Source: Bdellovibrionales bacterium
Lineage (GTDB): Bacteria > Bdellovibrionota > Bdellovibrionia > Bdellovibrionales > UBA1609
Length of the DNA stretch: 24,665 nt
Direction: 5' to 3'
NCBI GenBank assembly: GCA_050246815.1
Contig: JBFWVI010000044.1
Coordinates: 1-24,665, forward strand
A program made the position numbers and the translations under genes. The stretch's first letter is position 1. The number at the start of each line of letters is the position of its first letter. Below are positions 3 to 17,342 of this stretch, in pieces. The notes beneath the pieces were generated by a model. The model did no database searches, was not told the DNA's origin, and saw only the letters and a list, made by a program, of their open reading frames with translations.

Positions 3-1364
3 CTAAGCTTTATCTAGAATTAAGATACGTTCGCCCGGCGTCGTGAAGGCTCGTGTCCCCGTGTTGGTGAACGGACTTCCTGAAATAGCAACAAAAGTGC
101 CCGCCGAGACGTCAAACCAACGGGCTCGGACACTGGGAACCTGAATTGCAGCCATGTTGACCGAGAAATTAGCTCCCGGCGTGAAGATAAAGGCGAAACT
201 ACCGTCGGTTGCTAAAGCTGGGCAAATGGCCGAGGACCCTGATCCCAGCGCCGTCACTACAAGAGCTGTGCTCTTTTGCGGCACAAGTTTTTCCCACCTA
301 TACGCTTTTAGGAGAGACGACAGGTTTTTATAGTCGATCCAGGAATTTGCCAAGTAGCGGCTCAGTGCTGTTGCCGCGCCATAATTGTCTGGCGAATAGC
401 TTCCCATATGCCAAATAATGTCGTGACCACCAAAAAATCCCCCCAGACCACCGCCTAGAAGTGTCTGTATTGCGGGAATTCGACCCCCGCCGTTGGACCC
501 ATCCGGATTTTCGTAACCGGCTTCAATTAAGAAGAATGGGAGTGGGCCCGGGCGAGAATACGCGGTTGTCGCCAATGCAACTGCATCATCAGTATTGTCG
601 TGACCATAGATGTTGTTTAAATTCCAACCTGAATAACCTGAGGTCCAGGCTTTGTAACTTTCTCCATCGACACTGGTATGGCCATTTCTTGCGGTATGCC
701 CGGTTATTAGGTCGGTTGTTCGAACGCTTCGAATGCCAACCGCAATTTGCCATTGTTTTGTCCTGTCTGGTGTGGACGCGCTTCCATAGTTTCCGACGGC
801 TCCGAGATCATTCGGATCATCTCCACCCAAGACCCAGACGACATTTCCTTGTGCGTAGCGCCTTGCAAGGGCGGTACCATAAGCTTGAAGTGCTGCATTC
901 GTTGCCCCGCTGTACTCATTTCTCCACCCATCACTTCCATTCCCGTAGCCCGTGTAGGCCGGGGTAATAAAACAGGCGATTCCACGTGATTTGCACTCAT
1001 TTACAATAAAGTCTACTCGCTTCCAGTAGTTTTCGTTCATGACCCAATTTACGGGATTCATATTTGTGAATGGAGCGACGCGGTCCACGTTCAGATGGGC
1101 AGGAGTTTGATTGCTGTAAGCTTTTTCGATGGCAGAAAAGAGCAGGGCTGTGCAGCCTTTTGCGGCACGATCGTTGAGGTAAGATAGAATCTGATTGTTC
1201 GTGCAATTCACTGCCAATGACCACGGTGAATCCCCTACAACAATGAATGGGGTGCCATTGGCACCTTGCAAATATCTACCCGATGAATGAATCGAAAGCG
1301 GAAAAATCTCTTGAGAGGACGCCCTCACTTGGATTGTCACGCGCGATGAAGTCAATTTTCCCAT
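3..1364 (-). CDS. DUF4038 / apiosidase-like (GH140-related) TIM-barrel glycoside hydrolase-like protein with C-terminal putative collagen-binding-type beta domain; N-terminal shared tag, no signal peptide
   Basis: 453-aa ORF, complete (TAG at 3-5). Motifs typical of the family: GRYLQGANGTPFIVVGDSPW, YWKRVDFIV, YGTALARRY..NVVWVLGGD, LITGH, PFFLIEAGYE and C-terminal VRARWFDVSAG. An in-frame TGA lies three codons upstream of the ATG, so there is no hidden signal peptide. Confidence 0.8.
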   Translation of the reverse strand: MGKLTSSRVTIQVRASSQEIFPLSIHSSGRYLQGANGTPFIVVGDSPWSLAVNCTNNQILSYLNDRAAKGCTALLFSAIEKAYSNQTPAHLNVDRVAPFTNMNPVNWVMNENYWKRVDFIVNECKSRGIACFITPAYTGYGNGSDGWRNEYSGATNAALQAYGTALARRYAQGNVVWVLGGDDPNDLGAVGNYGSASTPDRTKQWQIAVGIRSVRTTDLITGHTARNGHTSVDGESYKAWTSGYSGWNLNNIYGHDNTDDAVALATTAYSRPGPLPFFLIEAGYENPDGSNGGGRIPAIQTLLGGGLGGFFGGHDIIWHMGSYSPDNYGAATALSRYLANSWIDYKNLSSLLKAYRWEKLVPQKSTALVVTALGSGSSAICPALATDGSFAFIFTPGANFSVNMAAIQVPSVRARWFDVSAGTFVAISGSPFTNTGTRAFTTPGERILILDKA

Positions 1365-1507
1365 TTGTTCTCACAATCTTAAGGCAATGTTTTGAAGGAA
1401 GAAGTTTTCTATCATTTGCCCCTAAAACTAGGATTCTATCCAATTTTGAGTGTCATGACAAATGGCTGCGCGCCAAAAGCAATCTGCGTTTTAACTATGA
1501 ACAAACC

Positions 1508-1522
1508 GCCTCAGATTGAAAC
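1508..1522. promoter_or_regulatory. Palindromic motif RTYTCA-N3-TGARAY copy (GCCTCAgatTGAAAC)
   Basis: One mismatch to the consensus seen 7 times in island non-coding or gene-boundary DNA; upstream of the 1364(-) gene. Confidence 0.5.
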
Positions 1523-1578
1523 TGAATTCAGTCGGTTGAGTTAAAATGTTCTATGGTGGGCCATGATGGCGCGAAAGT

Positions 1579-1593
1579 GTCTTAATTTGAGAT
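1579..1593. promoter_or_regulatory. Palindromic motif copy (GTCTTAattTGAGAT)
   Basis: One mismatch to the consensus; upstream of the 1364(-) gene. Confidence 0.55.
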
Positions 1594-1744
1594 GCATAAA
1601 GCGAAGGGTTCTGGTTTAATTTTCCTACGTGGATCATAGCCAGAGTCATCATCACAGTAATTGGATTCTTTATTCTCAATTTTTCGTTTGATCGGTTCAA
1701 GCCGAAAGTGAATGGGGATCAGGATTTCGCTGAACAGCGCGCGA

Positions 1745-1942
1745 CAACCCGCACTTCAAGTACTCTTCGAATTCTTTTTTGACAAAGTCTGGTAGGCCGC
1801 CAGACTCTTCAATTTGTGTAAGAAATGTGAGCCAATTCTCTTGCACGATCTTGTAGAGCGTCGCCTCTTCAGGAAGTCGCCGCCTATAACAGAAACTCTG
1901 AGTGGTTGAAACATTTCTGCTTGATGGAGCCGGGCATGCCAT
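1745..1942 (-). pseudogene. Truncated IS91-family (rolling-circle, Y2) transposase: N-terminal fragment running into the zinc-binding domain
   Basis: Translation YRRRLPEEATLYKIVQENWLTFLTQIEESGGLPDFVKKEFEEYLKCG matches the characteristic N-terminus of IS91-like transposases. Similarity stops right after KCG and the frame ends at 1697; no catalytic domain is present. Confidence 0.75.
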
Positions 1943-2110
1943 GGCCCAGCGGCACTGCAATGTTCTCTCTCATGTGAGGGCGACTAAATTGCGCGTTTTT
2001 CGATACAACGCGCTCCATCCGTCCGAGTAGGGCCATCAGCTCAATCAAATCTCTTTCAGCATTCAAATCGAGTGCCTAAAAATGAAGAAATAAGTTCAAT
2101 TAAAAACCGT

Positions 2111-3340
2111 TTAAGGTTTCTGCAAAGGATGAGGATAAGGATAGGCCGTGTAACCAGGTTTGGGTGTTGTACTGTTGATAAAATCCCGGCCAGCTTTGAC
2201 ATGGTTACAACCTTCCGTGCATGCCATGCCTGCATCGGCATTGTTGGATTTATTGCCCCACAAGTACAATGGATAGCTCACAGCCGTAGGCCCTTCACCG
2301 TGGGAGCCTATTTGATACTGGCAAATCCATCCCGACTCACCCGGGACATTTTTATCAGCCGGATCTGAACCATTGCACAGCTTAACAGATCGAGGATCAA
2401 ACGATTTGTAATCTATTGCTCCGATCACAACCGTGTAATCACCGGTAAAAGTATTTCCATAAATTGCACCCGTTCCGGCCGAAACATCAATTCCCTTCCA
2501 TTGGTTCGAGGTGTTTGAGAAGGTGTTATTGTAAATTTCGAAAGCATGAGCGCTGGCCAAACCACTTCTGGCTTTATCGTGGGTCTCCCACATTCCATTT
2601 TTAATGGTATTATTTCGAAACGCCTGGCGACCACCGCTGTTCATATCCATGACAGGGCGTTTCGTCACGCCGTAGTCATCATTAAATTGGAAAGTGTTGT
2701 CTTCCACAAAGAAAAAATCCGCTGTTCCCAATGTCAAGGGCGTGGCCCAATCCGAAGCGCCTTCTCCGTAGAGCATAATTCCAAAAGCTGAGCCTTGAAA
2801 AATATTGTTATCGATCAAACCGTGAGTGCTGGAGCTTCCTTTGATGGACCATCGATTGTTGTTATCGAAAGTGTTGTGGTGAATTCTTAAATTCTTCCAA
2901 CCCTTCGGACCGTAGGCTTGTATCGCCGTCCCATTCCAGTAATCCGCATCTCCGCCTTGAAACCAAAAACCCGAAATGTCCACGCGGCCTATTTTGTTTG
3001 ATATTTGAATATCCACAAGAGTGTGGTTAGTACCTCCGTAAACAATTTTAGTTCCACCCGCTTCGCGACCCGCTCCTTTTAAAGAGACTGTATTTTTTGA
3101 AATGGAAACGGCCGAGCTCCAGGTGCAGGTGCCCGCGGGCACAATCACTGTCACACCATCTGCTGCGCTGTTCACGGCCGATTGAACATCGACCTGCGAA
3201 CAGGAGGCCGCCATAATCTGACCGCCCGTGGGGGCGCTCGACACACTGATTTTTGCCGGTGAACTTTTCAGAGTCCTTGCCGATGCGGCTGTGCTCGACA
3301 GCATCAATATCATCAGGCCAAAAGCGAAAAGATGAGCCAT
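2111..3340 (-). CDS. Secreted right-handed parallel beta-helix protein (pectin-lyase-like fold), putative polysaccharide-active or binding; shared N-terminal tag
   Basis: ATG at 3340 with a G-rich RBS; signal peptide ending ASA. Cap motif AASCSQVDVQSAVNSAADGVTVIVPAGTCTW, Asn-ladder repeats (IHHNTF, IDNNIF, VEDNTF, FRNNTI, IYNNTF, IYGNTF) and C-terminal PGYTAYPYPHPL. Confidence 0.75.
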   Translation of the reverse strand: MAHLFAFGLMILMLSSTAASARTLKSSPAKISVSSAPTGGQIMAASCSQVDVQSAVNSAADGVTVIVPAGTCTWSSAVSISKNTVSLKGAGREAGGTKIVYGGTNHTLVDIQISNKIGRVDISGFWFQGGDADYWNGTAIQAYGPKGWKNLRIHHNTFDNNNRWSIKGSSSTHGLIDNNIFQGSAFGIMLYGEGASDWATPLTLGTADFFFVEDNTFQFNDDYGVTKRPVMDMNSGGRQAFRNNTIKNGMWETHDKARSGLASAHAFEIYNNTFSNTSNQWKGIDVSAGTGAIYGNTFTGDYTVVIGAIDYKSFDPRSVKLCNGSDPADKNVPGESGWICQYQIGSHGEGPTAVSYPLYLWGNKSNNADAGMACTEGCNHVKAGRDFINSTTPKPGYTAYPYPHPLQKP

Positions 3341-3486
3341 ATTCCCCCCCCTAGTCCCTACCAAAAACAGGTCCCATTACATTCTGAGTTTACCAAAGCA
3401 TAACAAATCGAAGTGATTCGACAATCAGATAGTCCGAGTTGAGACGTTAAAAGTGTTTAGTAACTGTGTAGCGACTGAATCAAGGT

Positions 3487-3512
3487 TGGAGTTACCCCGA
3501 ATTAGTGGACAC
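3487..3512 (+). mobile_element. Orphan IS3-family-like terminal inverted repeat
   Basis: TGGAGTTACCCCGAATTAGTGGACAC resembles IS3-family ends (TG...CCCC...GTGGACAC). No partner repeat or transposase seen in the window. Confidence 0.45.
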
Positions 3513-3671
3513 AAAATGCCCTCATCGAGTCCATGAATCTGTTTTTAATGTGGATAACGAAAGTGAAACGTATTGATGTGATTTTTCGTTAAGCAGATGT
3601 TTACTGTGATCAATATCAAAGAAGCCCGGATCCGGAGTGATCATCTCTATTCAGGTTAGTGAACTCGTATC

Positions 3672-3686
3672 GTTTCAATTTGAGAT
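3672..3686. promoter_or_regulatory. Palindromic motif copy (GTTTCAattTGAGAT)
   Basis: Perfect match to RTYTCA-N3-TGARAY in the divergent region between 3340(-) and 3776(+). Confidence 0.6.
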
Positions 3687-3775
3687 AAATAAACAGTCTC
3701 TAAACAGAAACATTCTCACGGACTTTATGGCCTACAAGCGTTTCGTCTAAACTGTTATTAACAAGGGGAATTGCC

Positions 3776-4825
3776 ATGAAGCTCATAAGGTACGCAAGTA
3801 TTTCATTTGTTGTTATGAATCTGATCATCATTCAACACTCTCAAGCCCGCACATTTAAATCACAAGCCGCGACCATATCGATAAAAGCTTCCTCTGGTAA
3901 CACCCTCCCCGAGGGAGCGGTTGGGCTTGCATCTCAGTACACTGGTGACACGGGTCTCGCGTCAGATACGAATGTCCTTTATTTTGATGACTTTGAATCC
4001 TACAACACCGCTTCGAACCTGATAGGTGCGGGCAAGTGGGACTCGGGCTATGGTATCAATAATATACGAATCGCTTCTGAGGCAGGTAATTTTTATTCAG
4101 GTACCAAAGCCGCCGAGTTTACACTGCCTAAAACAAGTGGCGAGGTCAGTATTGAGATCTTTAAAGAGCAAAATCTTCCCAAATTAGATACTGTTTTTGT
4201 TAGATTCTATGGAAAATATGCTACGGGTTTTGATGTTCTAGGCTCTAGCCATAATGGTGTATTTGTAGCCTCAAACTATTGGAGAGGTTTGTGTCAATCA
4301 TCCAATTCATGTGGCCCTGGTGTTAAAGCTAATGGTAAAAATAAATTTCTCATCAGTTACGAGGCTACTCGGAGCGCATCTAATCAGCCCAATCCTGGCA
4401 GTATAGCAACTTATATTTACCATCCTGAACAGAGAGATATATGGGGAGATATTTTTTTTCCGACTGGCAGAGTCATTCCATTTGATCTTACTCCGTATGA
4501 AGCCTTTAATGGAACATATTCGCAGCTTCCAACTTATATACCCTTTGTTTCTCGCCCAGAAGTAACCCCTCAACTAAATAAATGGCATTGTTTTGAAATA
4601 ATGGTTAAAGCAAACACTCCCGGTTCACGTGACGGCCGAATGGCTCTTTGGATAGATGGTAAGTTAATTGCTGATTTTACAAACCTACGCCTCAGGGACA
4701 TTGCAGAACTCAAAATTGACCATATTGGGCTCAGTTTACATGGAAACGGTGGAATATTAGAAACTTCAAAAAAATACTACGATAACGTCGTCATTGCAAA
4801 GTCGTATATTGGACCTATGAAGTAA
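3776..4825 (+). CDS. Secreted polysaccharide-lyase-like / ConA-like beta-jelly-roll protein; shared N-terminal tag
   Basis: 349 aa, RBS GGGGAA, signal peptide ending SQA. Motifs YFDDFES, VFVRFYGKY, KWHCFEIMVKANTPGSRDGRMALWIDGKL and YYDNVVIAKSYIGP. Confidence 0.7.
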   Translation: MKLIRYASISFVVMNLIIIQHSQARTFKSQAATISIKASSGNTLPEGAVGLASQYTGDTGLASDTNVLYFDDFESYNTASNLIGAGKWDSGYGINNIRIASEAGNFYSGTKAAEFTLPKTSGEVSIEIFKEQNLPKLDTVFVRFYGKYATGFDVLGSSHNGVFVASNYWRGLCQSSNSCGPGVKANGKNKFLISYEATRSASNQPNPGSIATYIYHPEQRDIWGDIFFPTGRVIPFDLTPYEAFNGTYSQLPTYIPFVSRPEVTPQLNKWHCFEIMVKANTPGSRDGRMALWIDGKLIADFTNLRLRDIAELKIDHIGLSLHGNGGILETSKKYYDNVVIAKSYIGPMK

Positions 4826-4908
4826 TCAACATTCTTGGATGGGTCTTTAGGACACTTCTTTCGAAATATCCTTTAACGTGAATATCAAGTTTCAAAGGGT
4901 TCAACGGT

Positions 4909-6861
4909 TCAGCCTCTCGCTTTCACGCCATATTGCGGGAATTCATTGAACTTCATTGAGTTACTGGCCCAGTTGCTGGCTCCAGTGATGCGCGCATATC
5001 CGGCGGCGGCACCGGTCGCGCCGTGGTCCACAGCAAATGCAAGCGCGGTGATCATGTGTCCCCAGTTGCCCTGCGGGAAGGCGGCGGCACTGCTATCGTC
5101 AGCATAGGCTTCTAGAATCGTGAGTCCCGCTGAAGAATCTAAATTATCACCATAGGTAGCCTGATATATTTCTTTGAATGTGTTGTAGAGAGATGAAGTA
5201 GAAGAAGAGGACCCGATGAGCATGCGATAGGGGCCCGGAGCACGTCGCCACGAAAATTCATTTAGCGCAGGGCCGCGGCCGGCAAGGCCGACCGGCAACC
5301 GATAGGCAAAATCACGCACGGCTTGATGAGAGGCGCGATCTGCCGCTGAAAGTTTCATTTCTTGATCCCAAGACCAGCCGATCGCAGCCACCATAAATAA
5401 TGACTCAAAAATAGAATGTTGAAATCCGGCTGCACCACCATCTTTGTCGTCGTAAATTCCCACCAGTCCAGTGGCGGGTGTGTTGGGTGCCACATGCGCA
5501 GACTGCCAATTTTTAAGATTGGCGACAACGTTGTTGCGACGATCTGTTTTTAACAAATCACTGTCAGGGGCAACGGCGGCAAGTGCCGCATGGGTGCGAT
5601 AGCGCCATGCGCGGCCGCGAGTCTGCGAAACAAACAAACGGCTTGTGCCTGCACCATTGACGGAGTTTGTGACGTAAGCCGCCCATGAATTGGCCTCGAT
5701 CACTTCAAGAAAAAATCTTTCAGCTGTGATAAGCCACGGCAAATAACCTGCATTGGGATGATGGGCGAATTCCCACTGGTTGTTGTTGGTGCCATTGCCA
5801 GCCATGCGTTCATCATTGATGTAAGCTGTGGGATAATCGGCCATGAGCGGAAGACGTCGTGTATTGGGATCACGATAAAAAATTGAATAGGTTCCGTAAG
5901 ATCGGCCATGTGCAATGCAGGAGTTATAGGCGCGCGCGTCTGAAGTCACACAAAATAGCGCATCCCAGTGGGGGAGAAGTCCTATGGAGGGCGCATAACC
6001 CACAGCACCCATGTCTTGCTCCCATTCCAGTCGGGCCATAGGTGTATAATTGCTCAGAACACCATTTAAAGTACTTTGGCTGGGCGCTCGCCAACCATAA
6101 TTGGGCACAAGCTTTGTGGCTAATAGGTAATTCACATTTATACTTGGCGTAATAACGGGATCAGCGCCATTGAATCCCACAACATCCCAGCGGGTCCCCT
6201 GTGGCATGCTCACTGCCCCTGAGAAGCGTTGATTGCCGGCAATACTCACGGTGGCTGCACCCGATTTTGAGCCCGAAGCATTAAAGGGCGCACTGCCGTT
6301 TTCAACCACCACGCGTACGCGGTAGCGGCCGTTAGACCAAAGCTGCACATGAAAAACGGCGCGCAGACTTGAATCGCCAGAGAAAGAACTCATGTACTGA
6401 AATGAAGCATAGTAGGGCCCCGCCTGCTCGGTAAGAACTCGAGCCGATGTGCCGAGCAGCGCTGAAAGATTAACGGTGCCATAGCTGCCATAACTCACAG
6501 AAGCCGAAGGGTTGAGCGCTATCAAATTGCTTTCATTCAACGGTGTTGCGGCGGCCACTGAAGCAATAGAAATGGTTAAAGTTCGAGGGGTGTTGGCAGC
6601 AAGATCAATGAGGCCAGAAATTACGCCATGTTTCAGACTGCCGTCATCCCAAGTTGAAATTGGTAAAATTTGTGTGGCGCTGGCATCGAGAGCGAGACCT
6701 TGACCGGCAGGAACATCACCTTTGCGAAACACATGGCCAGTAGAAAATGGCAAACTAACTCCGCCCACAGCACTTGTAAGACTAAAGCTAGCTACCGGTG
6801 CGCCTAAGACCGGAGGGCGAGTGATGGAAATTCTTACGGGATTTGATATTATTTTTGCCAT
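4909..6861 (-). CDS. Large putative carbohydrate-active protein (N-terminal PcRGLX/YetA-like barrel followed by probable helical catalytic region); shared N-terminal tag, no signal peptide
   Basis: Likely start ATG 6861 (AGGA RBS, just downstream of the upstream gene's stop at 6881), giving 650 aa. LPFSTGHVFRKGDVP and WDDGSLKHGVISG resemble the PcRGLX/YetA N-terminal domain. The C-terminal half is aromatic-rich and helical (HHPNAGYLPWLITAERFFLE, QTRGRAW). Confidence 0.6.
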   Translation of the reverse strand: MAKIISNPVRISITRPPVLGAPVASFSLTSAVGGVSLPFSTGHVFRKGDVPAGQGLALDASATQILPISTWDDGSLKHGVISGLIDLAANTPRTLTISIASVAAATPLNESNLIALNPSASVSYGSYGTVNLSALLGTSARVLTEQAGPYYASFQYMSSFSGDSSLRAVFHVQLWSNGRYRVRVVVENGSAPFNASGSKSGAATVSIAGNQRFSGAVSMPQGTRWDVVGFNGADPVITPSINVNYLLATKLVPNYGWRAPSQSTLNGVLSNYTPMARLEWEQDMGAVGYAPSIGLLPHWDALFCVTSDARAYNSCIAHGRSYGTYSIFYRDPNTRRLPLMADYPTAYINDERMAGNGTNNNQWEFAHHPNAGYLPWLITAERFFLEVIEANSWAAYVTNSVNGAGTSRLFVSQTRGRAWRYRTHAALAAVAPDSDLLKTDRRNNVVANLKNWQSAHVAPNTPATGLVGIYDDKDGGAAGFQHSIFESLFMVAAIGWSWDQEMKLSAADRASHQAVRDFAYRLPVGLAGRGPALNEFSWRRAPGPYRMLIGSSSSTSSLYNTFKEIYQATYGDNLDSSAGLTILEAYADDSSAAAFPQGNWGHMITALAFAVDHGATGAAAGYARITGASNWASNSMKFNEFPQYGVKARG

Positions 6862-6880
6862 ATTTTTCCTGGTCTCCGAA

Positions 6881-8077
6881 TTACAGTTTAAAAAAGGCGG
6901 GGCGTGCATTTGGGCCTGTGCAAGTAACAAACCCGCGAATTACGCCATCATCAACATAACCAAATCTTCCCCAGATTCCTTGACCCGACCAATTCGGATT
7001 TTCGACATTGTCGCCACCGCCTGTAACCTGTGTCCAATTCCAAGTGTCGGTTAGGTTGGTCGGAGGGGTGCAAAAGTAAAGAGTGTTCGAAGGTCCGCCC
7101 ACCACAAACCGCGAATTCATTTTATCCCAGGTCACGCCATGACTGCCCCCTGGCGGAGATGCTCCCGACGTTTTAAGCGTAATAAAAGCGGACGTGGAAA
7201 GATTCGAAACATCGGCAGCGCGCAAATAGCCAGTGTTGTCACCGGTGTGCAGAAGAACCCACTTTTTTGTCGGTGAGTGAGCCGCTGCTTGCCGGTCGCT
7301 GTATGAGCTGGGTGAATTGCTGGCTTCATTCACGTGTGACCAGGTGCGTGTTACAAAATCAAACGCAGCAAAACGATAGCGGCTGCCTTCCCAACAAATG
7401 GCTCGATTGTTGACGGAATCATAGACCACAACTTTGCCGGTGATTTCGGCAAAAAAACTTGGCGCCACTGTATTTGGATCCGGATAATCCGGATTTCTTT
7501 TCCAAACTAAAGCGTTGCCATTGGGCGCTGGATTATTAAAATCAAACGAATGCGAATAGTTCGACGAGCTACCGTCCTGCGAAAGACGAGCCCCTGTCAC
7601 TGCTGAAAAAAGTTCGTTGGTACCAGGGGCATATATGATGGATTGATAGGTGTGGCGAGAGTTCGGAGTGCCATCTGGGTTTTGACTGGTACTATAAGAG
7701 GGATTGGAATATGCATCGCGAACACGGAACCATGTGGGCGTGTTGTCACGCAATTTGAACAGCACCACTTCGTTGCCGCCATAAGCATTGTGGCCGCCAC
7801 CCCAAACCCCAAGTGAAGCTCCCAAATGCAGATTGCCATTGCGATCATAAAAGCTTTTGTTATTGATATAGCCGCCTGAATAACTGAATAAAGCAGTAGA
7901 TGTAACTTCTGAACAATTTGCTGCATCACCCGAAAGCTTCATGGGTCCGATGCCTGTCATAAATGATGAGCCGAGATTTTTCCAAGTGCCACTCGCCTGA
8001 GCATTGTACCAGGCGGGAGCGCCGCTTACGACTCCGCCCACCTTTATGGTAACCGGACCACTTATGATCTTGCTCAT
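6881..8077 (-). CDS. Kelch-like beta-propeller protein; shared N-terminal tag, no signal peptide
   Basis: 398 aa. GVWGGGHNAYGGNEV, PNSRHTY, repeated blade ends (DFVTRTW, TDTWNW), VVYDSVNNR and GIWGRFGY. Confidence 0.6.
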   Translation of the reverse strand: MSKIISGPVTIKVGGVVSGAPAWYNAQASGTWKNLGSSFMTGIGPMKLSGDAANCSEVTSTALFSYSGGYINNKSFYDRNGNLHLGASLGVWGGGHNAYGGNEVVLFKLRDNTPTWFRVRDAYSNPSYSTSQNPDGTPNSRHTYQSIIYAPGTNELFSAVTGARLSQDGSSSNYSHSFDFNNPAPNGNALVWKRNPDYPDPNTVAPSFFAEITGKVVVYDSVNNRAICWEGSRYRFAAFDFVTRTWSHVNEASNSPSSYSDRQAAAHSPTKKWVLLHTGDNTGYLRAADVSNLSTSAFITLKTSGASPPGGSHGVTWDKMNSRFVVGGPSNTLYFCTPPTNLTDTWNWTQVTGGGDNVENPNWSGQGIWGRFGYVDDGVIRGFVTCTGPNARPAFFKL

Positions 8078-8204
8078 TGCATTTACCCTAAAAGCCCATT
8101 GGCCCGAAAGAAGTTGATGTGTCGATCTTGATTCAATTTTATATTGTTGAGGTGCAATTTTAACTAACGAATTTACGATGGCAACATATGCAACCGACTG
8201 TAGA

Positions 8205-8219
8205 ATCTCATTTTGAGAC
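8205..8219. promoter_or_regulatory. Palindromic motif copy (ATCTCAtttTGAGAC)
   Basis: Perfect match in the divergent region 8077(-)/8456(+). Confidence 0.65.
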
Positions 8220-8348
8220 TCAATACTGTGTGCTGTAAACCTGGTCGAACGACATGCTGGCGATTTCTTCCTTCACGTCGTTCACATAATTTAGAAGTTC
8301 AGTCAAACTAACTTAAAATCAGTTATGAGTGATTGAAATGACGATAGG

Positions 8349-8363
8349 TTTTCAAAATGAGAC
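8349..8363. promoter_or_regulatory. Palindromic motif copy (TTTTCAaaaTGAGAC)
   Basis: One mismatch; upstream of 8456(+). Confidence 0.55.
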
Positions 8364-8391
8364 ACTTGAACTCGAATTGACTCGATTAAAA

Positions 8392-8406
8392 ATCTCAAAC
8401 GAAGAC
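8392..8406. promoter_or_regulatory. Degenerate palindromic motif copy (ATCTCAaacGAAGAC)
   Basis: Two mismatches; about 50 nt upstream of 8456(+). Confidence 0.4.
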
Positions 8407-8455
8407 AGTTTGAGTTCTTTCTTCAAATCATGCAGAAATAACCGATAATGAATGA

Positions 8456-9955
8456 GTGGGTAAAGCCTTGAGATTTAAAACATTTTCAATATTTATTTCG
8501 CTCGCGCTGCTTTCGTATTTTTATGTCAATTGCAGTGGGCAAGGCGCAAAATTTGGTTCTTCGGGCCGCCCCGTTAGTCCTACCGCCTCTGTCGATAGCG
8601 ATGGGAATGGCCAAGGCTATGGCGGTAAAATAAAAGACGGCCAGTTTAGACGTCAATACACGGATTATAAATGTGAACAAAAGCCTCTTGGTTTACAGGG
8701 GCTACTTCAGGTTGCGGCTGGAAATTTATTTTTGACCCTCGATAGCTGCGTGGACTTCTCCTATGAGATTGGCAATAGTGATTCCAGAGTTGATTTTTTA
8801 CCTTACAACCAAGATTTTATCGGGTTTAATCACGCCTTCTATGAACGGCAAGATCCAGCGCAACCGTCGGCGCTCATTTCAGAGGCATGGTGCAGGTGGA
8901 CACAGTCCAATCGGGGCGTCGATGCAGTGGTTCGCATCAATCCCTCGGGCCCTGTAACGGCTCAAATCTATTTGGGCTCATCACAAGATGCGTTTGTTTG
9001 GGACTCACGCCTAGTCGCGCCCACTGTTGTTCAGCGAACAACGAGCGCGAGTGGTTACTCGTATGTAAACAGTGCGATTCATTTGCAAATTAATTCTGCG
9101 ATGAATGCGAATGGCAAATTTCAGGGTCACCTGCGGGCCAATGTTGACGGTGTAGATTACGATATGAACGTCGACTGCCGAATGATGCAAATGGCGCCGG
9201 TTCTACCTGTCGTCACACCTAGCCTGATCGGCTTATGGCAGATGAACGGGCCACTGGGCGTTGTGCCCGCAAATATCATCGATCTGAGTGGCATGAATAA
9301 TAATGGTGTTTCGGTGGATTCGGGATCGAGTATGGTTTATCAGGCGGGTATTTTGTCTGAAAGTATTCGATTTGTAGATAACGATGATGCGATCTCCGTG
9401 CCACCTTCACCGTCACTTAATAACTTAACAGAATTGAGTGTGTCGGCATGGGTTCGTGGTGATCCCGATCCGACTGTGACGAACGCTGTAAATGGCGGCA
9501 GTATCTTATGGAAAGGCCAATCAACACCGACGGGGACAGATCCCACTACGCTTGATTTGTCGTCGGGTTGGTATTTTGGTATCCCAGCTCAGTCGGGACG
9601 ACTTGAATTTAAAGTCGCCTATTCGGGCAGCACCATGCACTCGTTGACAAACCCGAGTGTGTTACGGATTTTCCCGGGGCAATGGCATCATGTGGCGGTA
9701 ACGTGGAACGGCGCGGCTGCGGCCTCTGGTGTTCGCTTTTATATTGATGGTCAACTGGCCACGCCGGATACGCCGACAGTTGGCGGGGTAGGCTCACGTC
9801 TTTCAGATGTCGCAAATAGTATGAAAATGGGATTCTACTCAGACAATCTCTATAATACCTTTCGCGGAAATTTGGATCAGGTCCAGATATGGAATCGCGT
9901 ATTGACCGCAGCCGAAATCAACGATCTTTTCAATTCAGGAACAGTTCTGCCTTAA
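8456..9955 (+). CDS. Putative lipoprotein with C-terminal LamG-like (Laminin_G_3 / ConA-like) jelly-roll domain
   Basis: Hydrophobic leader ending YVN-C, Gly/Ser linker, then GNGQGYGGK. C-terminal LIGLWQMN, DLSGMNNNG, LSVSAWV, WHHVAVTWNG, FYIDGQL and FRGNLDQVQIWNRVLTAAEINDLF are classic LamG motifs. Confidence 0.8.
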   Translation: MGKALRFKTFSIFISLALLSYFYVNCSGQGAKFGSSGRPVSPTASVDSDGNGQGYGGKIKDGQFRRQYTDYKCEQKPLGLQGLLQVAAGNLFLTLDSCVDFSYEIGNSDSRVDFLPYNQDFIGFNHAFYERQDPAQPSALISEAWCRWTQSNRGVDAVVRINPSGPVTAQIYLGSSQDAFVWDSRLVAPTVVQRTTSASGYSYVNSAIHLQINSAMNANGKFQGHLRANVDGVDYDMNVDCRMMQMAPVLPVVTPSLIGLWQMNGPLGVVPANIIDLSGMNNNGVSVDSGSSMVYQAGILSESIRFVDNDDAISVPPSPSLNNLTELSVSAWVRGDPDPTVTNAVNGGSILWKGQSTPTGTDPTTLDLSSGWYFGIPAQSGRLEFKVAYSGSTMHSLTNPSVLRIFPGQWHHVAVTWNGAAAASGVRFYIDGQLATPDTPTVGGVGSRLSDVANSMKMGFYSDNLYNTFRGNLDQVQIWNRVLTAAEINDLFNSGTVLP

Positions 9956-9957
9956 GT

Positions 9958-11262
9958 ATGAAAACGCAATCTGAAGCTTTAGAGTTTCTAGACGACCTTG
10001 AAGCAAAATGGCGAAAGGGCAACACACAAGTCGTGACGCAAACGCTGAAAGACTTGGGCCCGAACAGTGTTCCGAGGCCGCTTTTAGCAAGGCTTGCGAA
10101 AATCGGATTCCGGGCGGGACAACCGCGTTTTGCGATCAAGCTGCTAAATCAAGTTGTCAGAATTCATACGTCATCCGAGCCCCATTGCTCAAACGAAGAA
10201 TTGGCGATTTATGCGCTTTCTCAGATGGAGATCGGGGTCTACAAAGAGGCCATTCATCTTTTTACATCGATGGATCATAAAGAATTCCCAGAAGCCGATT
10301 TTTACTTGGCGCTAACGCTATTTAAATTGTGGAACTACGAAGAAGCGATTTCAGTCTTATCAAGATATGTATCGTCACCTCAAATTACTGATTATCAAAG
10401 ACTGGTGGGCAACGTGAATTTGGCAGCGGCCTACATCACGGAAAGACATTTTGAGCAGGCCCGGTCGCTTTTAGATAAAATCAGAATTGAAGCTGAACAA
10501 AAGCAACATCTACTTTTACTCGGCAATATATCTGAGCTCACAAGCCAGCTGTGCTTTTATGAGAAGCGCTACGATGAGGCGCGTGATTATTTGGCGCAAG
10601 CCAAAGCGGTGTTGAGTGACAACAACCAGCTTTATGCACTTTTTGTAGAAAAATGGTTGTCTATAACAGACCTTATGGAGTTCGGGCCGGATCACAAGCG
10701 ATTGCAGCGATTGGAGGCTGTCCGAAAGGAATCCCTAAGAATGAAGCATTGGTCATCCGTGCGTGAGTGTGACCTGTTTTTATCGCTTGCGACATCGGAT
10801 CAAGAATTATTTAAAAAAATTTATTACGGGACTCCAATTGCAGGCTACCGTTCGCGAATGTTGCGGCTGTTTAATATTTCAGAGGCCCAATTGGAGAAAG
10901 AGTACAACTGGTGCCCACAGGGCTCACCGTTGTCAAAAAAATTATTGCTCGATGTCGAAAGAGGTATTGCCGTAAAAAGCGGGGTCAAGTTAAAAAAAGA
11001 TCAGCTGCCGCACCGGCTATTAAAAATTCTTTGTTCAGACTTTTATGCTCCCTTCAAACCAGAGGAGTTGTTTTCGCTACTGTTTGATAATGAAAAATTC
11101 AACACCGAAACTTCGGTGGCGCGAGTTTACAATGGAGTGAGCGCATTAAAAGCGTGGCTGCAGCAGTCGAAGCTGCCCGTGCAAATCGTGAATGAAGAAA
11201 GCGGTTATCAGATACAAGTGCTGCGCCCCTGCGTGCTGCATGTTTCTTTGAAAGTCTCATAA
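9958..11262 (+). CDS. TPR-repeat protein with C-terminal OmpR/PhoB-like winged-helix DNA-binding domain (putative transcriptional regulator)
   Basis: ATG 2 nt after the LamG stop, 434 aa. TPR-like helices (FYLALTLFKLWNYEEAISVL, VNLAAAYITERHFEQARSLL, QLCFYEKRYDEARDYL). The C-terminal LPHRLLKIL..PEELFSLLF..ARVYNGVSALKAWL..IVNEESGYQI fits a wHTH. Confidence 0.7.
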   Translation: MKTQSEALEFLDDLEAKWRKGNTQVVTQTLKDLGPNSVPRPLLARLAKIGFRAGQPRFAIKLLNQVVRIHTSSEPHCSNEELAIYALSQMEIGVYKEAIHLFTSMDHKEFPEADFYLALTLFKLWNYEEAISVLSRYVSSPQITDYQRLVGNVNLAAAYITERHFEQARSLLDKIRIEAEQKQHLLLLGNISELTSQLCFYEKRYDEARDYLAQAKAVLSDNNQLYALFVEKWLSITDLMEFGPDHKRLQRLEAVRKESLRMKHWSSVRECDLFLSLATSDQELFKKIYYGTPIAGYRSRMLRLFNISEAQLEKEYNWCPQGSPLSKKLLLDVERGIAVKSGVKLKKDQLPHRLLKILCSDFYAPFKPEELFSLLFDNEKFNTETSVARVYNGVSALKAWLQQSKLPVQIVNEESGYQIQVLRPCVLHVSLKVS

Positions 11263-11268
11263 TAAGAT
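11254..11268. promoter_or_regulatory. Palindromic motif copy (GTCTCAtaaTAAGAT)
   Basis: One mismatch; overlaps the regulator's stop codon and lies about 90 nt upstream of 11358(+). Confidence 0.5.
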
Positions 11269-11357
11269 TCTCAAGCCAAATTCAGCAGTTGCCACCTTAA
11301 ATTCGTTAGTTAAATACCAATCGTATTAACAGTAGATTGGAATCTAAGGGGCGAAGC

Positions 11358-12449
11358 ATGAAAAATATTATCTTCGCATTATTATTGGTGCCGATGTGGG
11401 CAGAGGCCGCGACGATCAAATCTGCAAGAACAAAAATTACTGTTGTCGCAGTCAATCAAAACTCCGTGTTGGCCATGAAAGCTCAGCAGCTCCAGCCCGG
11501 CCAGTGGGTAACGCTCAATAAGGCGGGGGATGGAGCCGGTTTTGACTATAGTTTTATTGAATCCTGTCAGCCCACGGGCTGCTTTGACACGATATTGAAT
11601 TATGCCGACAAAGGATTCTGGCTGCCCACTCTCAAAGAGATCCACTTTTTAGGCAAGGGTCATATTGCTGAACATAAATATGTTCATTACAGCGAGGCTA
11701 CGAATAAGTGGATAACAGATCCAAGACCCGCATGGGCCTGTGGCCAGGTGGCAAACTGCTATGGTATGGGCCATGGCTTTGAGCACAGCGCAGCGAATCC
11801 TTTGAACGGAGATTTCTATGCCCGCATTCAAAGTTCGAGCGTGGTTTACAAACTCAATCGAGCCACAGGCGTTTGGTCGCAGCTTCCTGCCGCACCCACG
11901 CTCGAGGTCGCCATTGCGATTGAATATTTTCCCGAGCTGGGTGGTCTGTTGATGATTGGAACCACCGGAAGTGAAAGTTCGGGTCAGGCTCACCTTTATC
12001 GCGAATCCACGGGAAGATGGGAGCGGATTGGCACGAATTTTCCGATGGGTGCCTATCACAACGTGGCTCGCTATGACGCTGTTAACAAAATTATTATTTT
12101 CGGTGGTGGTAACGGTTCGCGAAATTTGTATAAAATAAATGCCAGCGGTCAGGTGTCGGCTATTGCGCAGGCACCTATCCCCGTGCGAGTGCTGGAGAAT
12201 GTGTTCACCGTTGATCCGGTATCTGGAAATTATCTATTGTTTGGGCCTCGCGGTGAATTCTATGAATACAACACGAATCAAAATTCTTGGCGCGCGCTTT
12301 CAACGGCAAACGTCCCCATTTTTAAAAGTAACGAAAATCAAATGTGGATGCGAGTGGCCATCCCAATCTCTACATACGGAGTCAATGCATTCTTAGTGGA
12401 AGACAGTGGGAATACACGTGTCGTGCTTTATAAACACTTTTCGCGGTAG
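11358..12449 (+). CDS. Secreted Kelch-like beta-propeller protein; shared N-terminal tag
   Basis: ATG 11358 with AAGGGG RBS; signal peptide ending AEA. Blade motifs YSEATNKW, LNRATGVW, YRESTGRW, YNTNQNSW and IIIFGGGNG. Confidence 0.7.
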   Translation: MKNIIFALLLVPMWAEAATIKSARTKITVVAVNQNSVLAMKAQQLQPGQWVTLNKAGDGAGFDYSFIESCQPTGCFDTILNYADKGFWLPTLKEIHFLGKGHIAEHKYVHYSEATNKWITDPRPAWACGQVANCYGMGHGFEHSAANPLNGDFYARIQSSSVVYKLNRATGVWSQLPAAPTLEVAIAIEYFPELGGLLMIGTTGSESSGQAHLYRESTGRWERIGTNFPMGAYHNVARYDAVNKIIIFGGGNGSRNLYKINASGQVSAIAQAPIPVRVLENVFTVDPVSGNYLLFGPRGEFYEYNTNQNSWRALSTANVPIFKSNENQMWMRVAIPISTYGVNAFLVEDSGNTRVVLYKHFSR

Positions 12450-12454
12450 GCTTT

Positions 12455-13795
12455 ATGACTATTAAAAGAGTTCTTATTTTTCTGTGCGCCTTAAATTTGA
12501 GCTTCACTTTAAATAGCAGTTACGCTCTAGCCGCAAAAATTAAATCTACGCCGACCAGAATATCTGTGCGGGCACTAACAATGGGTGGTGTTCGTGCGTT
12601 TCCAGAGGCTGAGGGATTTGGTGCTGAAACCAAAGGCGGCCGCGGCGGTAAAATCTATGTGGTCGATACGCTCAATTGGCGCGGCCCCGGTTCTCTTGGC
12701 GATGCGCTTCTGGCAAAAGAACCGCGCATAATTGTATTTCGGGTTTCGGGGGTTATCAATGTCACGGAAGGAATTGAACTTGATGAGTCAAATTCTTTTG
12801 TGACCGTGGCCGGGCAAACATCACCGGGCGGAATTACGCTGACCGGGTCGCCAGGGGCATTCATCAGCTCTTACCAAAAGAACTTTCACGATGCGGTATT
12901 TCGCTTTTTGCGTTTTCGTGGGCGTGGCAACTATGACAACATTCAGCTTAATCAGGTGCATCATATCGTCATCGATCATTGTGATTTTTCAGGCGGTACT
13001 GATGAGTCTTTCGACATTACGCATGGTTCAGATTACACGGTTCAATGGACGACTATTACCAATAGCGATCCTTCAGGGCAGAATTATGGCGCGCTTTTGG
13101 CTTACCCGCCCAATTCGCGTATCAGTTGGCATCACAACCTGCTGGCCCACCATAAAAACCGATGCCTCGCGCATATGCACTGGGGTGCGCCGCCCGCTCC
13201 TGAAGACAACACTCTCGTCGATATGAGAAACAATCTTGTTTACAACTGTGCCTTCGATGCCATCATGTACAACAACGACCCCGGCGCCAATGCGGGTCGT
13301 ATTTCTTTTAATCTTGTGAACAACTATTTTAAGGCCGGGCCTGACACTCCGGGCACTGCTTATGATTATTCTTTGGGTACAACCGGTATCAAAACTTACG
13401 AAAGTGGTACTGTTTATGAGGGGGGGGCTCGCCGTAACATTAACAATCAGACCGCGGCAACCACGATGGCTCCCGTGACAACTTATACAAGCACGCAAGC
13501 CTACGATATGGTGTTGCAGAAAGTGGGGGCTTTTCCGCGCGATCCCATGAACACCCGTGTGGTGAACGAAATGAAAACCAAAACTGGTCGCTTGGGTAAG
13601 CTGGATGATGCTTATCTGGCGGGCGGCGCCACTGCCCCAGCAGATGGCGATCGTGACGGAATGCCTGATGCATGGGAGTCTTCACGCGGATTAAACCCAG
13701 CGAGTGCCGCCGATGCATCTCTTGATCGCAATTCGGATGGTTACACCAATATTGAAGAGTACATTAATGAATTAGCAGCTTCACTGATACCGTAA
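12455..13795 (+). CDS. Secreted pectate lyase family PL1-like protein with C-terminal Ca-binding DxDxDG repeats; shared N-terminal tag
   Basis: Signal peptide ending ALA. Motifs AFPEAEGFGAETKGGRGGKIYVV, GPGSL, PRIIVFRVSGVI, TVAGQTSPGGI, IVIDHCDFS, DESFD, ISWHHNL, DGDRDGMPDAWE and DGYTNIEEYIN. Confidence 0.85.
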   Translation: MTIKRVLIFLCALNLSFTLNSSYALAAKIKSTPTRISVRALTMGGVRAFPEAEGFGAETKGGRGGKIYVVDTLNWRGPGSLGDALLAKEPRIIVFRVSGVINVTEGIELDESNSFVTVAGQTSPGGITLTGSPGAFISSYQKNFHDAVFRFLRFRGRGNYDNIQLNQVHHIVIDHCDFSGGTDESFDITHGSDYTVQWTTITNSDPSGQNYGALLAYPPNSRISWHHNLLAHHKNRCLAHMHWGAPPAPEDNTLVDMRNNLVYNCAFDAIMYNNDPGANAGRISFNLVNNYFKAGPDTPGTAYDYSLGTTGIKTYESGTVYEGGARRNINNQTAATTMAPVTTYTSTQAYDMVLQKVGAFPRDPMNTRVVNEMKTKTGRLGKLDDAYLAGGATAPADGDRDGMPDAWESSRGLNPASAADASLDRNSDGYTNIEEYINELAASLIP

Positions 13796-14549: not shown

Positions 14550-15953
14550 ATGCGCAAGACAATGTTGACCCTGGCCACCATGGCCCTGTTGCCCCACTTG
14601 GCTCAGGCCGAAATCAGCCCGGCCGAGGCTGACAATTATCCGGTGAACTTTGCCCGATGCAATTACGTCGTGACTGTGCCCGAAGGGGCGGGGGGCTACC
14701 TGCATAGTCGCGATTGTAAGACCGTCTATGTCTTGCCGTCGGCAAAAGGGATATTTAGGGCGCAAGTTCAACTGAGCGAGACGTTATTGCAAAATACCTG
14801 TTCGGCTTTTGAGCTACGTCAAAGGGATTATTTGCAAAAGTCTAAACTGCTTTTGCAGGCTCAAGAAAAACTCAACGAACTTGAGCTGACCGGACAAAAC
14901 CAACGGGAAATTGAGAGGCTGTATAAGTTGACCGAGCGTTTACAAAATGAATTGCAGAAAATGGAGGATCCGTTTCGAGACGTGGAAGGCGGCAAAGCCA
15001 AGTTTGATCTTCAGGCCGGCGTGACCCGTCAAGCCTTGCAAGGTTATTACAACGCCAACCAACAATTGGTTTATTCCAAGCAAATCAAGTTCGAGCCGAT
15101 GCCGGTACAAAATGGCTATTTGACCATGACCGAGTATCGTCCCAACGACAAAACTAAGTTTCCTTCCGCTCTCGCGGTTTACGCCAATGGCATTCTGGTG
15201 AAATCCGAGGGCAGCGAACAAAACATCTACAAGATGAAAAGTGCCATGAGCGGCCAGATCGTGCTGGGCATGAGCAAAGCCTGCGATCTTTATGCTCGCA
15301 AAAAGAGCGCCCGCGATCGCGGCATAACTCTGGATGAAGATGAACTGGGCTCGGGTTTGATCAGCGAGCTAGCGCCCACCTTTAGCTACACCTACCCCGT
15401 GATGTCGACTGTGCGCTATGAAGCCGTTATCGATGTCAACAGGGCCACCGAATTGCTGTTGGATGTACAAAAAGTCAAAAGCCAGTTCAAAGTGTCGGAG
15501 TTTGCACAAATGCTTGGCCGCGGAACGGCCGGCGACATCTTCAGGATGGAAATCGACTTGGGCGATCTGTCGGATCGTTTCACCACTGCCGAAGACCGCC
15601 AAACCTTCTTGGCGGAATTGACGGCAGACGTGCGCAATCGTTTAAGCGAAAAAATGTTGCGCGAACTTGAATTGGTGAGTGTCGTCAAGTTTGAAAAAGA
15701 GCATGCGGGTGAAGTCCCCAATCCCGGTTATGAGGCCCAGCCGATTGGCGTCGTCAGAACTTGCTCGAGTCAATCATTCTTGGGTATCAAAGTGCGCTCA
15801 AGCTGCCAGGACCGGGTGGTCACTCGGACCATTCCAATCGATGGCCGCTTAGAAGACACCATCAAAAAGATCCAAGATTTCCAGATCTCTGTGTCCGAGC
15901 AAGTCAGCATTCGCGAGCTCACTTTGCACGGCGAAAACGTCATTTTTGAATAA
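14550..15953 (+). CDS. Secreted hypothetical protein A with coiled-coil insertion; paralog of 17343..18761
   Basis: 467 aa, AAGGAG RBS, signal peptide ending AQA, six Cys. Collinear motifs shared with 17343..18761: SxDCxxxYVLP, FxPMP, SAxSGQxVLxxxxACxxY, APxxxYxYxV and YEA. Confidence 0.8.
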   Translation: MRKTMLTLATMALLPHLAQAEISPAEADNYPVNFARCNYVVTVPEGAGGYLHSRDCKTVYVLPSAKGIFRAQVQLSETLLQNTCSAFELRQRDYLQKSKLLLQAQEKLNELELTGQNQREIERLYKLTERLQNELQKMEDPFRDVEGGKAKFDLQAGVTRQALQGYYNANQQLVYSKQIKFEPMPVQNGYLTMTEYRPNDKTKFPSALAVYANGILVKSEGSEQNIYKMKSAMSGQIVLGMSKACDLYARKKSARDRGITLDEDELGSGLISELAPTFSYTYPVMSTVRYEAVIDVNRATELLLDVQKVKSQFKVSEFAQMLGRGTAGDIFRMEIDLGDLSDRFTTAEDRQTFLAELTADVRNRLSEKMLRELELVSVVKFEKEHAGEVPNPGYEAQPIGVVRTCSSQSFLGIKVRSSCQDRVVTRTIPIDGRLEDTIKKIQDFQISVSEQVSIRELTLHGENVIFE

Positions 15954-15963
15954 GGAGCATGCT

Positions 15964-16938
15964 ATGAATATAAAATTAATTTTCTTTGGCCTTTGCTTGT
16001 CTGTTGTGGCGAAGGCCGTCCCGGATCTGCGTGGGCAAGCCCAGGACCAGCGTCGTTGGGCGCCAATCGAAGTGCGTTTGCCAGAAAATCCGGAGCAAGT
16101 CGTCGCAAGCGGCTATCTCACAACAAAGGGGACATGGCGTTTGAACCAAATCGCGACGCAGATTGAAGTCAAAGCGGGTTTGATTTCGACCTATGCATCG
16201 CAAATGGGTTTATCTCAATTCACTAAATTGTGCGGCCGTTTGGGCTATGGCTTTGCGGCTGTTCGTGAGATGAATCGTCCCTTCAAGCTGCGGGTGCGTG
16301 TGCCCGATTGGTCGCATGCAGTCGCAGGCCTTGACGGCCCCCAAGAGATCCGACTTCTCAAAGTTCGTTCTCGATTGGCTTTTGACGCTCAGTCGAACAC
16401 GTTACTTTATGCCAACTTGGACCCGCGCAAGCTTGAACGATGGGTTGAAGCCCAGGTACAGGCCAAGATCGATGAGCTGCGTGCCCGTGGCGAAATTGTG
16501 ATTGACATCCAAGGCCACGACTATTTGGCGTGTGATTACATAGCCGGCACGGCACACCTTGGTCTTGAGGTGATGTGGGAATATCCCGCTGCTAAAATCA
16601 AACGGCAACCCACCTTAGGAGAGGAGGATCTCAATGCGGTTTTCAGTCGGGCCAAAGCTCAATATTCAAGTCAGAGCAGTTGCCCCGACAGTCTGATTTT
16701 ATCTTCTGCGGTGCTGACCGCCAGTTTGACGTCGATGACCCGCAAAGCAGTGGATGAGGTCGGAATGCAGAGCTACCTGGCGCTGTTCAATGCGGTTTAC
16801 GACTCGAGCGCGTGCCGTTGGAAAGATGGGCGCGACGTTCATATGACAGAAGTGGCTCAAGAATTTGACCAACTGAGCGAAGAAAAAAAACAGGTGACGA
16901 CCAAAGTGTTCAGCCGCTTCAGCGGGGAACTGCAATGA
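15964..16938 (+). CDS. Secreted hypothetical protein B, probable distant paralog of A/D
   Basis: Start ATG 15964 after AAGGAG overlapping the upstream stop; signal peptide ending AKA. GEIVIDIQGHDYLACDY resembles SGQIVLGMSKACDLY of A. Confidence 0.75.
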   Translation: MNIKLIFFGLCLSVVAKAVPDLRGQAQDQRRWAPIEVRLPENPEQVVASGYLTTKGTWRLNQIATQIEVKAGLISTYASQMGLSQFTKLCGRLGYGFAAVREMNRPFKLRVRVPDWSHAVAGLDGPQEIRLLKVRSRLAFDAQSNTLLYANLDPRKLERWVEAQVQAKIDELRARGEIVIDIQGHDYLACDYIAGTAHLGLEVMWEYPAAKIKRQPTLGEEDLNAVFSRAKAQYSSQSSCPDSLILSSAVLTASLTSMTRKAVDEVGMQSYLALFNAVYDSSACRWKDGRDVHMTEVAQEFDQLSEEKKQVTTKVFSRFSGELQ

Positions 16939-17339: not shown

Positions 17340-17342
17340 GGT

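Follow-up and report, generated by a model that had tools for sequence, protein, structure and literature searches.

Interchangeable carbohydrate-active heads are plugged onto surface anchors by a portable module in the cohesin–dockerin scaffolds of cellulosomes, where the dockerin, about 70 residues long, is a domain that binds calcium. Coupling through a single strand is exemplified by the chaperone–usher pili (Fim/Pap), which use donor-strand complementation and exchange (PMC7616799 and PMC8047123, in excerpt), and by the Pam pili of Candidatus Mycosynbacter amalyticus, in which truncated immunoglobulin-like (Ig) domains and a single-domain acceptor, PamT, undergo donor-strand exchange without an usher (PMC13278184, a preprint, in excerpt). 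In twin-arginine translocation (Tat), a signal-less hitchhiker protein such as Escherichia coli hydrogenase-2 HybC is exported with a twin-arginine partner, and hitchhiking substrates are described in an excerpted review as largely unidentified (PMC8047123). The type IVb pilus signal of TcpF and CofJ is a short, flexible N-terminal mature segment that docks the protein on a surface structure (PMC9565799, in excerpt). Here, we analyzed a window of 24,665 nucleotides (the whole stretch of DNA under study, contig C44 of the 3.4 Mb genome G000 of a Bdellovibrionales bacterium), in which seven proteins begin with a shared 12-residue tag. The best reading of our results, and a probable one, is donor-strand plug-in anchoring combined with Tat piggy-back export of signal-less cargo: the tag is most likely a free β-strand supplied in trans to a cadherin/He_PIG-type Ig domain, hereafter called the catcher, whose last strand (G) is missing.

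Compared with chaperone–usher pili, the proposed arrangement is alike in that a terminal strand of one protein would complete the truncated Ig domain of another, and an Ig fold without its last strand is present in the catcher (fold Z below 6, with the strand naming inferred). Unlike in the pili, strand and truncated domain lie here on different protein classes, so that no polymer would result; the catcher profile matches only five proteins in the genome, with no tagged cargo among them, and only one protein from elsewhere, P0104, has both parts. The Ig domain is moreover cadherin/He_PIG-like, the tag occurs at either terminus, and the cargo comprises many unrelated folds; neither the usher PF00577 nor the PapD chaperone PF00345 was found in the genome, which is 99.1% complete, while the E. 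coli control was positive. In contrast to dockerin, the plug here is one strand, and searches returned neither cohesin PF00963 in the genome nor a dockerin match on any cargo scanned. Pam pili consist of a filament with membrane-anchored chaperones (PMC13278184, in excerpt), whereas here the acceptor would serve for anchoring or escort, and the donor strands would be the terminal tags of enzyme-like heads. A hitchhiker-type arrangement is present, with a signal-less tagged gene beside a twin-arginine partner at four loci (C64, G002 C20, L013 and L032; motif recognized by pattern) together with TatC; known hitchhikers are dedicated subunits of one enzyme, whereas here a minimal carrier would meet a portable 12-residue handle on many unrelated cargos. 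The TcpF/CofJ signal binds minor-pilin trimer clefts via an aromatic residue and serves one cargo per pilus system (PMC9565799, in excerpt), whereas the tag consensus contains no aromatic residue; no pilin was recognized by eye beside the tagged clusters, and no search aimed at pilins was made. The literature searched, which included few subscription papers and no supplements, held no description of a tag–catcher pair.

The initial annotation had placed seven tags in the window, and all seven (7/7) translate at the coordinates and strands given for them. Each stands directly after a predicted processing site, four after the Ala-x-Ala-type end of a hydrophobic leader and three after ATG, with the cleavage sites judged by eye. 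The Ser5 codons of the seven tags read TCA, AGT, TCA, TCA, AGT, TCT and TCT, in agreement with the noted switching between AGT and TCN. An iterated tag profile was run over 977,906 sequence windows in the 2,532 open reading frames (ORFs) of at least 200 residues in the genome. It returned 21 matches of at least 21 bits, all of them terminal, while the next best (18.3 bits) was internal. Fourteen of the 21 clear copies lie outside the window, many of them already top-ranked by a seed profile of the seven tags alone, and the weakest (21.0 bits) is the tag of cargo 1, directly after its ATG. By position, 13 copies follow a signal peptide, 6 follow Met and 2 are C-terminal, so that the original description of an N-terminal tag applies to 19 of 21 copies but not to the remaining two; the tag is present at either terminus on at least six folds. 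Approximately six further cargo genes bear weaker or shifted tags (C6 90264, C7 81445, C13 22703, C41 24191, and C112 3113 and 4077).

The motif is not equally frequent at random secreted N-termini, as two controls demonstrated. Among 520 ORFs with a crude signal-peptide pattern, 8 scored at least 21 bits and none scored 15–21 bits; three rounds of shuffling the first 90 residues of the 2,532 ORFs gave no match of 15 bits or more, with maxima of 13.4–14.3 bits. Conservation is quoted here from the consensus, xxxKSxPTxIxV, and from Ser5 codon counts rather than from column-by-column frequencies. Ser5 is kept in 20 of the 21 copies (16 TCN and 4 AGY codons, with one Thr), so that its supposed invariance nearly holds genome-wide, whereas position 10, reported as invariant Ile, varies among I, L and V.

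The tag sits at a terminus, is portable between proteins, and does not belong to the cargo fold. Over 404 columns, cargo 2 shares 27% identity with its C7 paralog, yet the tag is N-terminal in the former and C-terminal in the latter. An N-terminal tag occurs in 0 of 119 homologs of the cargo 2 β-helix, several close ones being named Pseudobdellovibrionaceae or Bdellovibrio, which gives the genome a Bdellovibrio-like appearance; these homologs include one strong and one borderline C-terminal copy, and a type IX secretion tail is present in 18 of the 120 homologs listed. In the propeller family of cargo 6, 12 of 12 homologs from eight genomes without a catcher match are untagged (maximum 3.4 bits), or 11 of 11 in seven genomes when a row from the unpublished genome G447 is left aside. 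Those untagged homologs bear other leaders or tails; this family thus swaps sorting modules, the tag being one of them. None of the 51 cargo 4 homologs scores above 11.5 bits; they form a weak control, as many were gene-called without their N-terminus; for cargo 4 itself, database gene calls begin at residue 37, and the tag is lost. Some cargo 4 homologs are apparently fused to the propeller family of cargo 5 (C-termini of P0016, P0037, P0042 and P0043, by eye). Each of the five additional cargo paralogs detected either bears the tag or is truncated where its contig ends. In a tagged paralog of cargo 3 (C7 81445-81982), the frame is broken near residue 115 and the sequence resumes on C119 (3-590), which reflects either a real break or an assembly error.

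A strand-deficient Ig partner had been predicted, and such a domain was found: five proteins of this genome end in the same He_PIG/cadherin-like Ig domain of about 78 residues, approximately one strand short. By leader pattern, three are of lipoprotein type and two of twin-arginine type. One lipoprotein catcher carries a stalk of Big_13-like domains, and several catchers cap long Ig-like stalks (C1 93260, P0058 and P0068). The fold and sequence of the first two thirds of the catcher are those of He_PIG (PF05345) and cadherin-like domains. In contrast to these, all five catchers score under the Pfam He_PIG cut-off and stop before the end of the model: matches cover only profile positions 8-62/67 of 96, and no full-length match above the cut-off was obtained, the best reaching 23.1 bits (cut-off 24) over positions 9-62. 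The four small catcher proteins examined had no match among NCBIfam models, and the PDB gave no sequence match for the catcher alignment, cargo 4 or cargo 5. An AlphaFold model of the catcher (predicted local distance difference test, pLDDT, 88.9) has its final strand at residues 73-76 of 78; cadherin and Rib domains, which are ~100 residues long, align with it over their first ~80 residues at Z 4-5.8, as with 2a4c residues 4-80 of 99 (Z 4.0, root-mean-square deviation 3.2, 67 residues aligned). The catcher therefore stops about 20 residues short of a full cadherin-like domain, and the missing part, which we take from cadherin topology to be the F–G hairpin and strand G, could correspond to the position filled by the tag. 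No complete He_PIG domain turned up with which the tag could be compared as a last strand.

A word-index homolog search with the catcher retrieved only the query itself, and relatives came from a full profile scan, which gave 348 related clusters. The best 150 of these include the five query proteins, and 139 of the 150 share one end point to within -1 to +2 residues, a stop so uniform that it is selected and not a product of decay. The same best 150 include 84 proteins with a twin-arginine pattern, 55 with a lipobox pattern, and three in which the catcher is fused in front of a PcRGLX-like protein. The twin-arginine catchers of the family (C14 47069 and C64 12765 in this genome, G002 C20 5169 and G1042 C136) have no lipobox cysteine, and their segment following the conserved Trp is unlike that of the lipoprotein catchers; these differences might weaken binding, which would fit a transient escort. 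P0104 (174 residues, without a signal peptide) consists solely of tag-Ig-tag-Ig, the tag and Ig domain being parts of one tandem repeat, and could self-polymerize like a pilin.

Tag and catcher travel together. On C64, a lipoprotein catcher is followed by a cargo with signal peptide and tag, a twin-arginine catcher, and two cargos with Met and tag, so that two small catcher genes adjoin a tagged cluster; on G002 C20, two Met-tag cargos precede both catcher types. Catchers occur in 3 of 109 genomes of the family (this genome, G002 and G1042), all three of which have tagged cargo and bear lipoprotein and twin-arginine catchers side by side. The tag tracks the catcher, not the lineage. G1042 was selected by a tag search of the 109 family genomes and then proved to hold 4 catchers, with at least 10 tagged genes. 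Co-occurrence extends beyond the two other family genomes to beta-proteobacteria, myxobacteria, metagenomes and phages. One myxobacterial and two beta-proteobacterial loci have a Tat-lipoprotein catcher followed by a signal-less tagged gene, and a third beta-proteobacterial locus has the catcher alone. One beta-proteobacterial locus lies among genes resembling polysaccharide synthesis genes (by eye), and cargo heads may originate in polysaccharide producers and be reused by predators and phages. Among 401 genomes of the phylum, the catcher profile was found in G000 only; it was also found in 1 of 301 genomes in the class of G419, and strongly in 3 of 301 in the order of G421, where 3 marginal matches near E 5e-4 were left uncounted.

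A DNA pattern scan yielded 87 metagenome stretches, from which 79 loci were listed, 75 of them with a catcher by hidden Markov model; three of the 79 were dismissed as chance, and in L067 the ORF filter had overlooked a catcher. The tag profile, trained on this genome only, was then run over 548,045 sequence windows in 82 catcher-pattern loci (the 79 metagenome loci and three genome loci). All 22 matches of at least 15 bits (18 distinct peptides) directly follow ATG or GTG, against a base rate of 3.0%, as do 25 of the 31 matches of at least 12 bits. Of the 50 cargo-like ORFs at these loci, 22 have a Tat or lipoprotein pattern and no tag (maximum 1.5 bits), 21 have a start codon followed by a tag-like strand (17 at 14 bits or more) and no leader pattern, and 7 are unclassified. 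Tag matches in G381 and G1047 were rejected as chance, lying in frames of 75 and 31 residues in genomes without a catcher match.

The pair also occurs in phages. At six viral loci encoding five distinct proteins, the catcher forms the N-terminus of a PcRGLX-like protein, and at all five distinct loci the next gene begins with a tag-like strand (three scored 13.8-16.4 bits and two were recognized by eye). The tagged product is signal-less and, where comparable, propeller-like. Neighboring genes encode terminase, portal, major head and virion structural proteins, and no match to a phage catcher protein was found among cultured phages. Since phages keep the tag–catcher pair in virion modules and virion assembly needs no export, this argues for docking as the service of the tag, rather than secretion. 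In these uncultured phages, a block of small virion-type genes accompanies the catcher-PcRGLX-like protein and the tagged propeller (L135, L136, L137, L138 and L139), and this block is possibly a head or neck fibre of a branched kind without prior description.

The tag–catcher pairing had been guessed before any complex was predicted. Prediction from the catcher alignment and a 32-residue tag alignment gave a score of 0.48 against 0.06 for the best control, with agreement between runs in at least 98% of contacts and a partner pLDDT of at least 58. The mark it passed is reached by 116 of 157 solved pairs and 2 of 215 mismatched pairs. The initial annotation had proposed predicting such complexes with secreted candidates; the pairing passes, but the pass is weak and provides no interface.

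On these results, the mechanism would run as follows. The tag would insert into the open groove of the catcher, a step that we consider quite probable. Sec cargo would be exported and cleaved so that the tag becomes residue 1, to be caught by a lipoprotein catcher, which in one case tops a stalk of Ig-like domains. Cargos without a signal, among them 1, 4 and 5 of the window, would bind a twin-arginine catcher in the cytoplasm and cross the membrane with it via Tat; this co-export is somewhat likely, and TatC is present in the genome (E 2.9e-72). Hand-over from a twin-arginine to a lipoprotein catcher would be possible. In phages, this clip would serve to attach a propeller to a large virion protein of PcRGLX-like type. 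The cargo would then consist of polysaccharide-binding or -cleaving heads, about 25 of them and exchangeable, displayed on few anchors; that a predator-type bacterium displays polysaccharide-directed heads in this way is suggested by annotation and falls a little short of likely. The donor-strand interpretation of the initial annotation thus gains a truncated and co-occurring Ig partner, and a weak pass for binding itself in complex prediction, whereas nothing suggests the polymeric fibre it had offered as a scaffold.

Several observations weigh against this interpretation. No catcher gene lies inside the window. Fold Z-scores of the catcher are below 8 (best 5.8), Foldseek with the catcher model returned nothing at E 0.001 or better, and the name strand G is inferred from aligned ranges and cadherin topology. 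The complex score falls in the range of 0.60 or under, which holds 18 of the 157 solved pairs and both mismatches, and the model of P0104 leaves the inner tag unplaced (residues 90-100, pLDDT below 50). Only 18 of the 79 metagenome loci hold a tag of at least 15 bits, many being short contigs; G549 and G420 have catchers and no tagged cargo was found in them. The tag search is insensitive, having missed the G002 tags at E 0.01, so that absence from other family genomes is soft, and related loci are non-independent samples. Finally, the tag resembles a far commoner C-terminal tail: 70 of the 119 β-helix homologs (P0206-P0324) end in a short tail with a P-x-x-hydrophobic core, of which a few score 9-14.5 bits, and this likeness could point to a wider signal class. 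A few of these tails grade into the present tag, the observation also concerns L122 1435-2622, and a strict pattern did not find the tail in this genome. The tail resembles the first strand of fibronectin III.

The likeness to the common C-terminal tail is one reason to consider an alternative, in which the tag would be a signal for secretion or sorting that is recognized by transport machinery, such as a type IV pilus tip or a type II system, with the truncated Ig proteins as mere neighbors in the same mobile loci. The tag is terminal, basic and amphipathic, and N-terminal pilus secretion signals exist, the TcpF N-terminus being read by TcpB (PMC9565799, in excerpt). We nevertheless consider this account unlikely, as the pair is retained among phage virion genes, a setting in which export is not expected, and the distribution of the tag in the family follows that of the catcher (3 of 109 genomes); the type IVb signal, according to the same excerpt, also requires a critical aromatic residue, of which the tag consensus is free. 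A narrower proposal has the binding step in common with donor-strand anchoring: tag and catcher would bind only as a Tat escort for signal-less propellers, and the tag on Sec cargo would serve periplasmic retention or folding instead of surface display. Outside the family, nearly all tagged cargo is indeed signal-less and follows a Tat-type catcher, and hitchhiker export is established (PMC8047123, in excerpt). This restriction is improbable given that 13 of the 21 tagged proteins in the genome have their own signal peptide and two have the tag at the C-terminus, and the long Ig-like stalks under catchers suit display at a distance.

That the tag has no function and is left over from a broken Ig repeat, copied along with the genes, is very improbable. 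Tag and domain could both be fragments of a tandem repeat like that of P0104; against this, at least six folds retain the tag, at one terminus or the other, both codon families encode its Ser5, and the further cargo paralogs are tagged wherever the contig does not end (5/5 tagged or cut). Hardly credible is a compartment-loading peptide of encapsulin or microcompartment type. Such peptides, which we take to be short, terminal and portable, would resemble the tag in form, but most cargo bears export signals, and the encapsulin shell PF04454, the only shell family searched, was not found in the 99% complete genome.

If donor-strand anchoring is true, it would constitute a sorting and display principle absent from the literature searched, in which donor-strand complementation clips many unrelated enzymes to an anchor instead of building a pilus, and would provide a general-purpose handle for Tat hitchhiking. 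It would also assign a role to a family of at least 348 clusters that lacks annotation, and would account for the absence of signal peptides on extracellular-type propellers. At 12 and about 78 residues, tag and catcher are small and could yield a new non-covalent protein coupling pair. The proposal further suggests, as a specific hypothesis, a way in which some predators of Bdellovibrio-like type and some phages could handle surface polysaccharides. A more extensive picture, a horizontally mobile system with a universal strand plug, a minimal Tat carrier that passes signal-less folded proteins on to lipoprotein stalks for display, free exchange of heads, a set of about 25 glycan-directed heads expanded in a predatory bacterium, and branching of phage host-recognition proteins, one module across prey, predator and phage, is put forward tentatively.

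The features concerned are listed in Table 1. The description of the cargo as glycan-active is borne out in part: the apiosidase-like match of cargo 1 is above the Pfam cut-off, whereas the PL14, β-helix and PelZ matches are under it and the window propellers (cargos 5 and 6) have Kelch matches only. Genome-wide, cargo annotations point to polysaccharides, mostly under cut-off (apiosidase-like, PL14-like, PelZ-like, heparinase II/III C-terminal-like and PcRGLX-like), and many cargos are Kelch-like propellers without predicted activity. The PcRGLX/RIFT likeness of cargo 4 comes from atlas look-alikes only.

Table 1. Tagged cargo genes and the LamG lipoprotein of the window (contig C44), and catcher genes on other contigs of the same genome.
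Feature	Contig	Position	Strand	Tag	Character
Cargo 1	C44	3..1364	-	1361-1326	Signal-less; apiosidase-like (PF13204) TIM barrel plus PF12904 domain
Cargo 2	C44	2111..3340	-	3277-3242	Signal peptide; right-handed β-helix (match under Pfam cut-off)
Cargo 3	C44	3776..4825	+	3848-3883	Signal peptide; PL14-like jelly roll (under Pfam cut-off)
Cargo 4	C44	4909..6861	-	6858-6823	Signal-less, tag after ATG; PcRGLX/RIFT-barrel-like
Cargo 5	C44	6881..8077	-	8074-8039	Signal-less, tag after ATG; Kelch-like propeller
LamG lipoprotein	C44	8456..9955	+		Untagged, inside the cargo cluster
Cargo 6	C44	11358..12449	+	11409-11444	Signal peptide; Kelch-like propeller
Cargo 7	C44	12455..13795	+	12533-12568	Signal peptide; pectate-lyase-like β-helix (PelZ model, under cut-off)
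Catcher	C64	11266			
Catcher	C64	12765			
Catcher	C14	46771			
Catcher	C14	47069			
Catcher	C1	93260			

The LamG lipoprotein of the window had been named as a candidate partner or scaffold. It bears no likeness to the catcher (profile comparison probability 0.1), has a paralog beside another tagged gene, and was discarded. Together with a tetratricopeptide repeat (TPR) protein (pair at window 8456-11262), it recurs beside tagged genes on C84 (5498-8497), the two LamG lipoproteins being 36% identical. Genes of the TIGR02147 family with a lipoprotein-like neighbor directly adjoin tagged clusters on C64 (10166-11047), C7 (79165-80025) and C16 (2709-3590), and C13 and C112 likewise have similar-looking genes next to tagged ones, as judged by eye. 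Between cargos 1 and 2, window positions 1697-1960 encode a fragment of an ISCR/IS91-type transposase (NF052416, E 9e-9, 56/509 positions). A run of secreted proteins of no known family occupies window positions 14550-18761, in which 14550-15953 and 17343-18761 resemble distant paralogs by eye.

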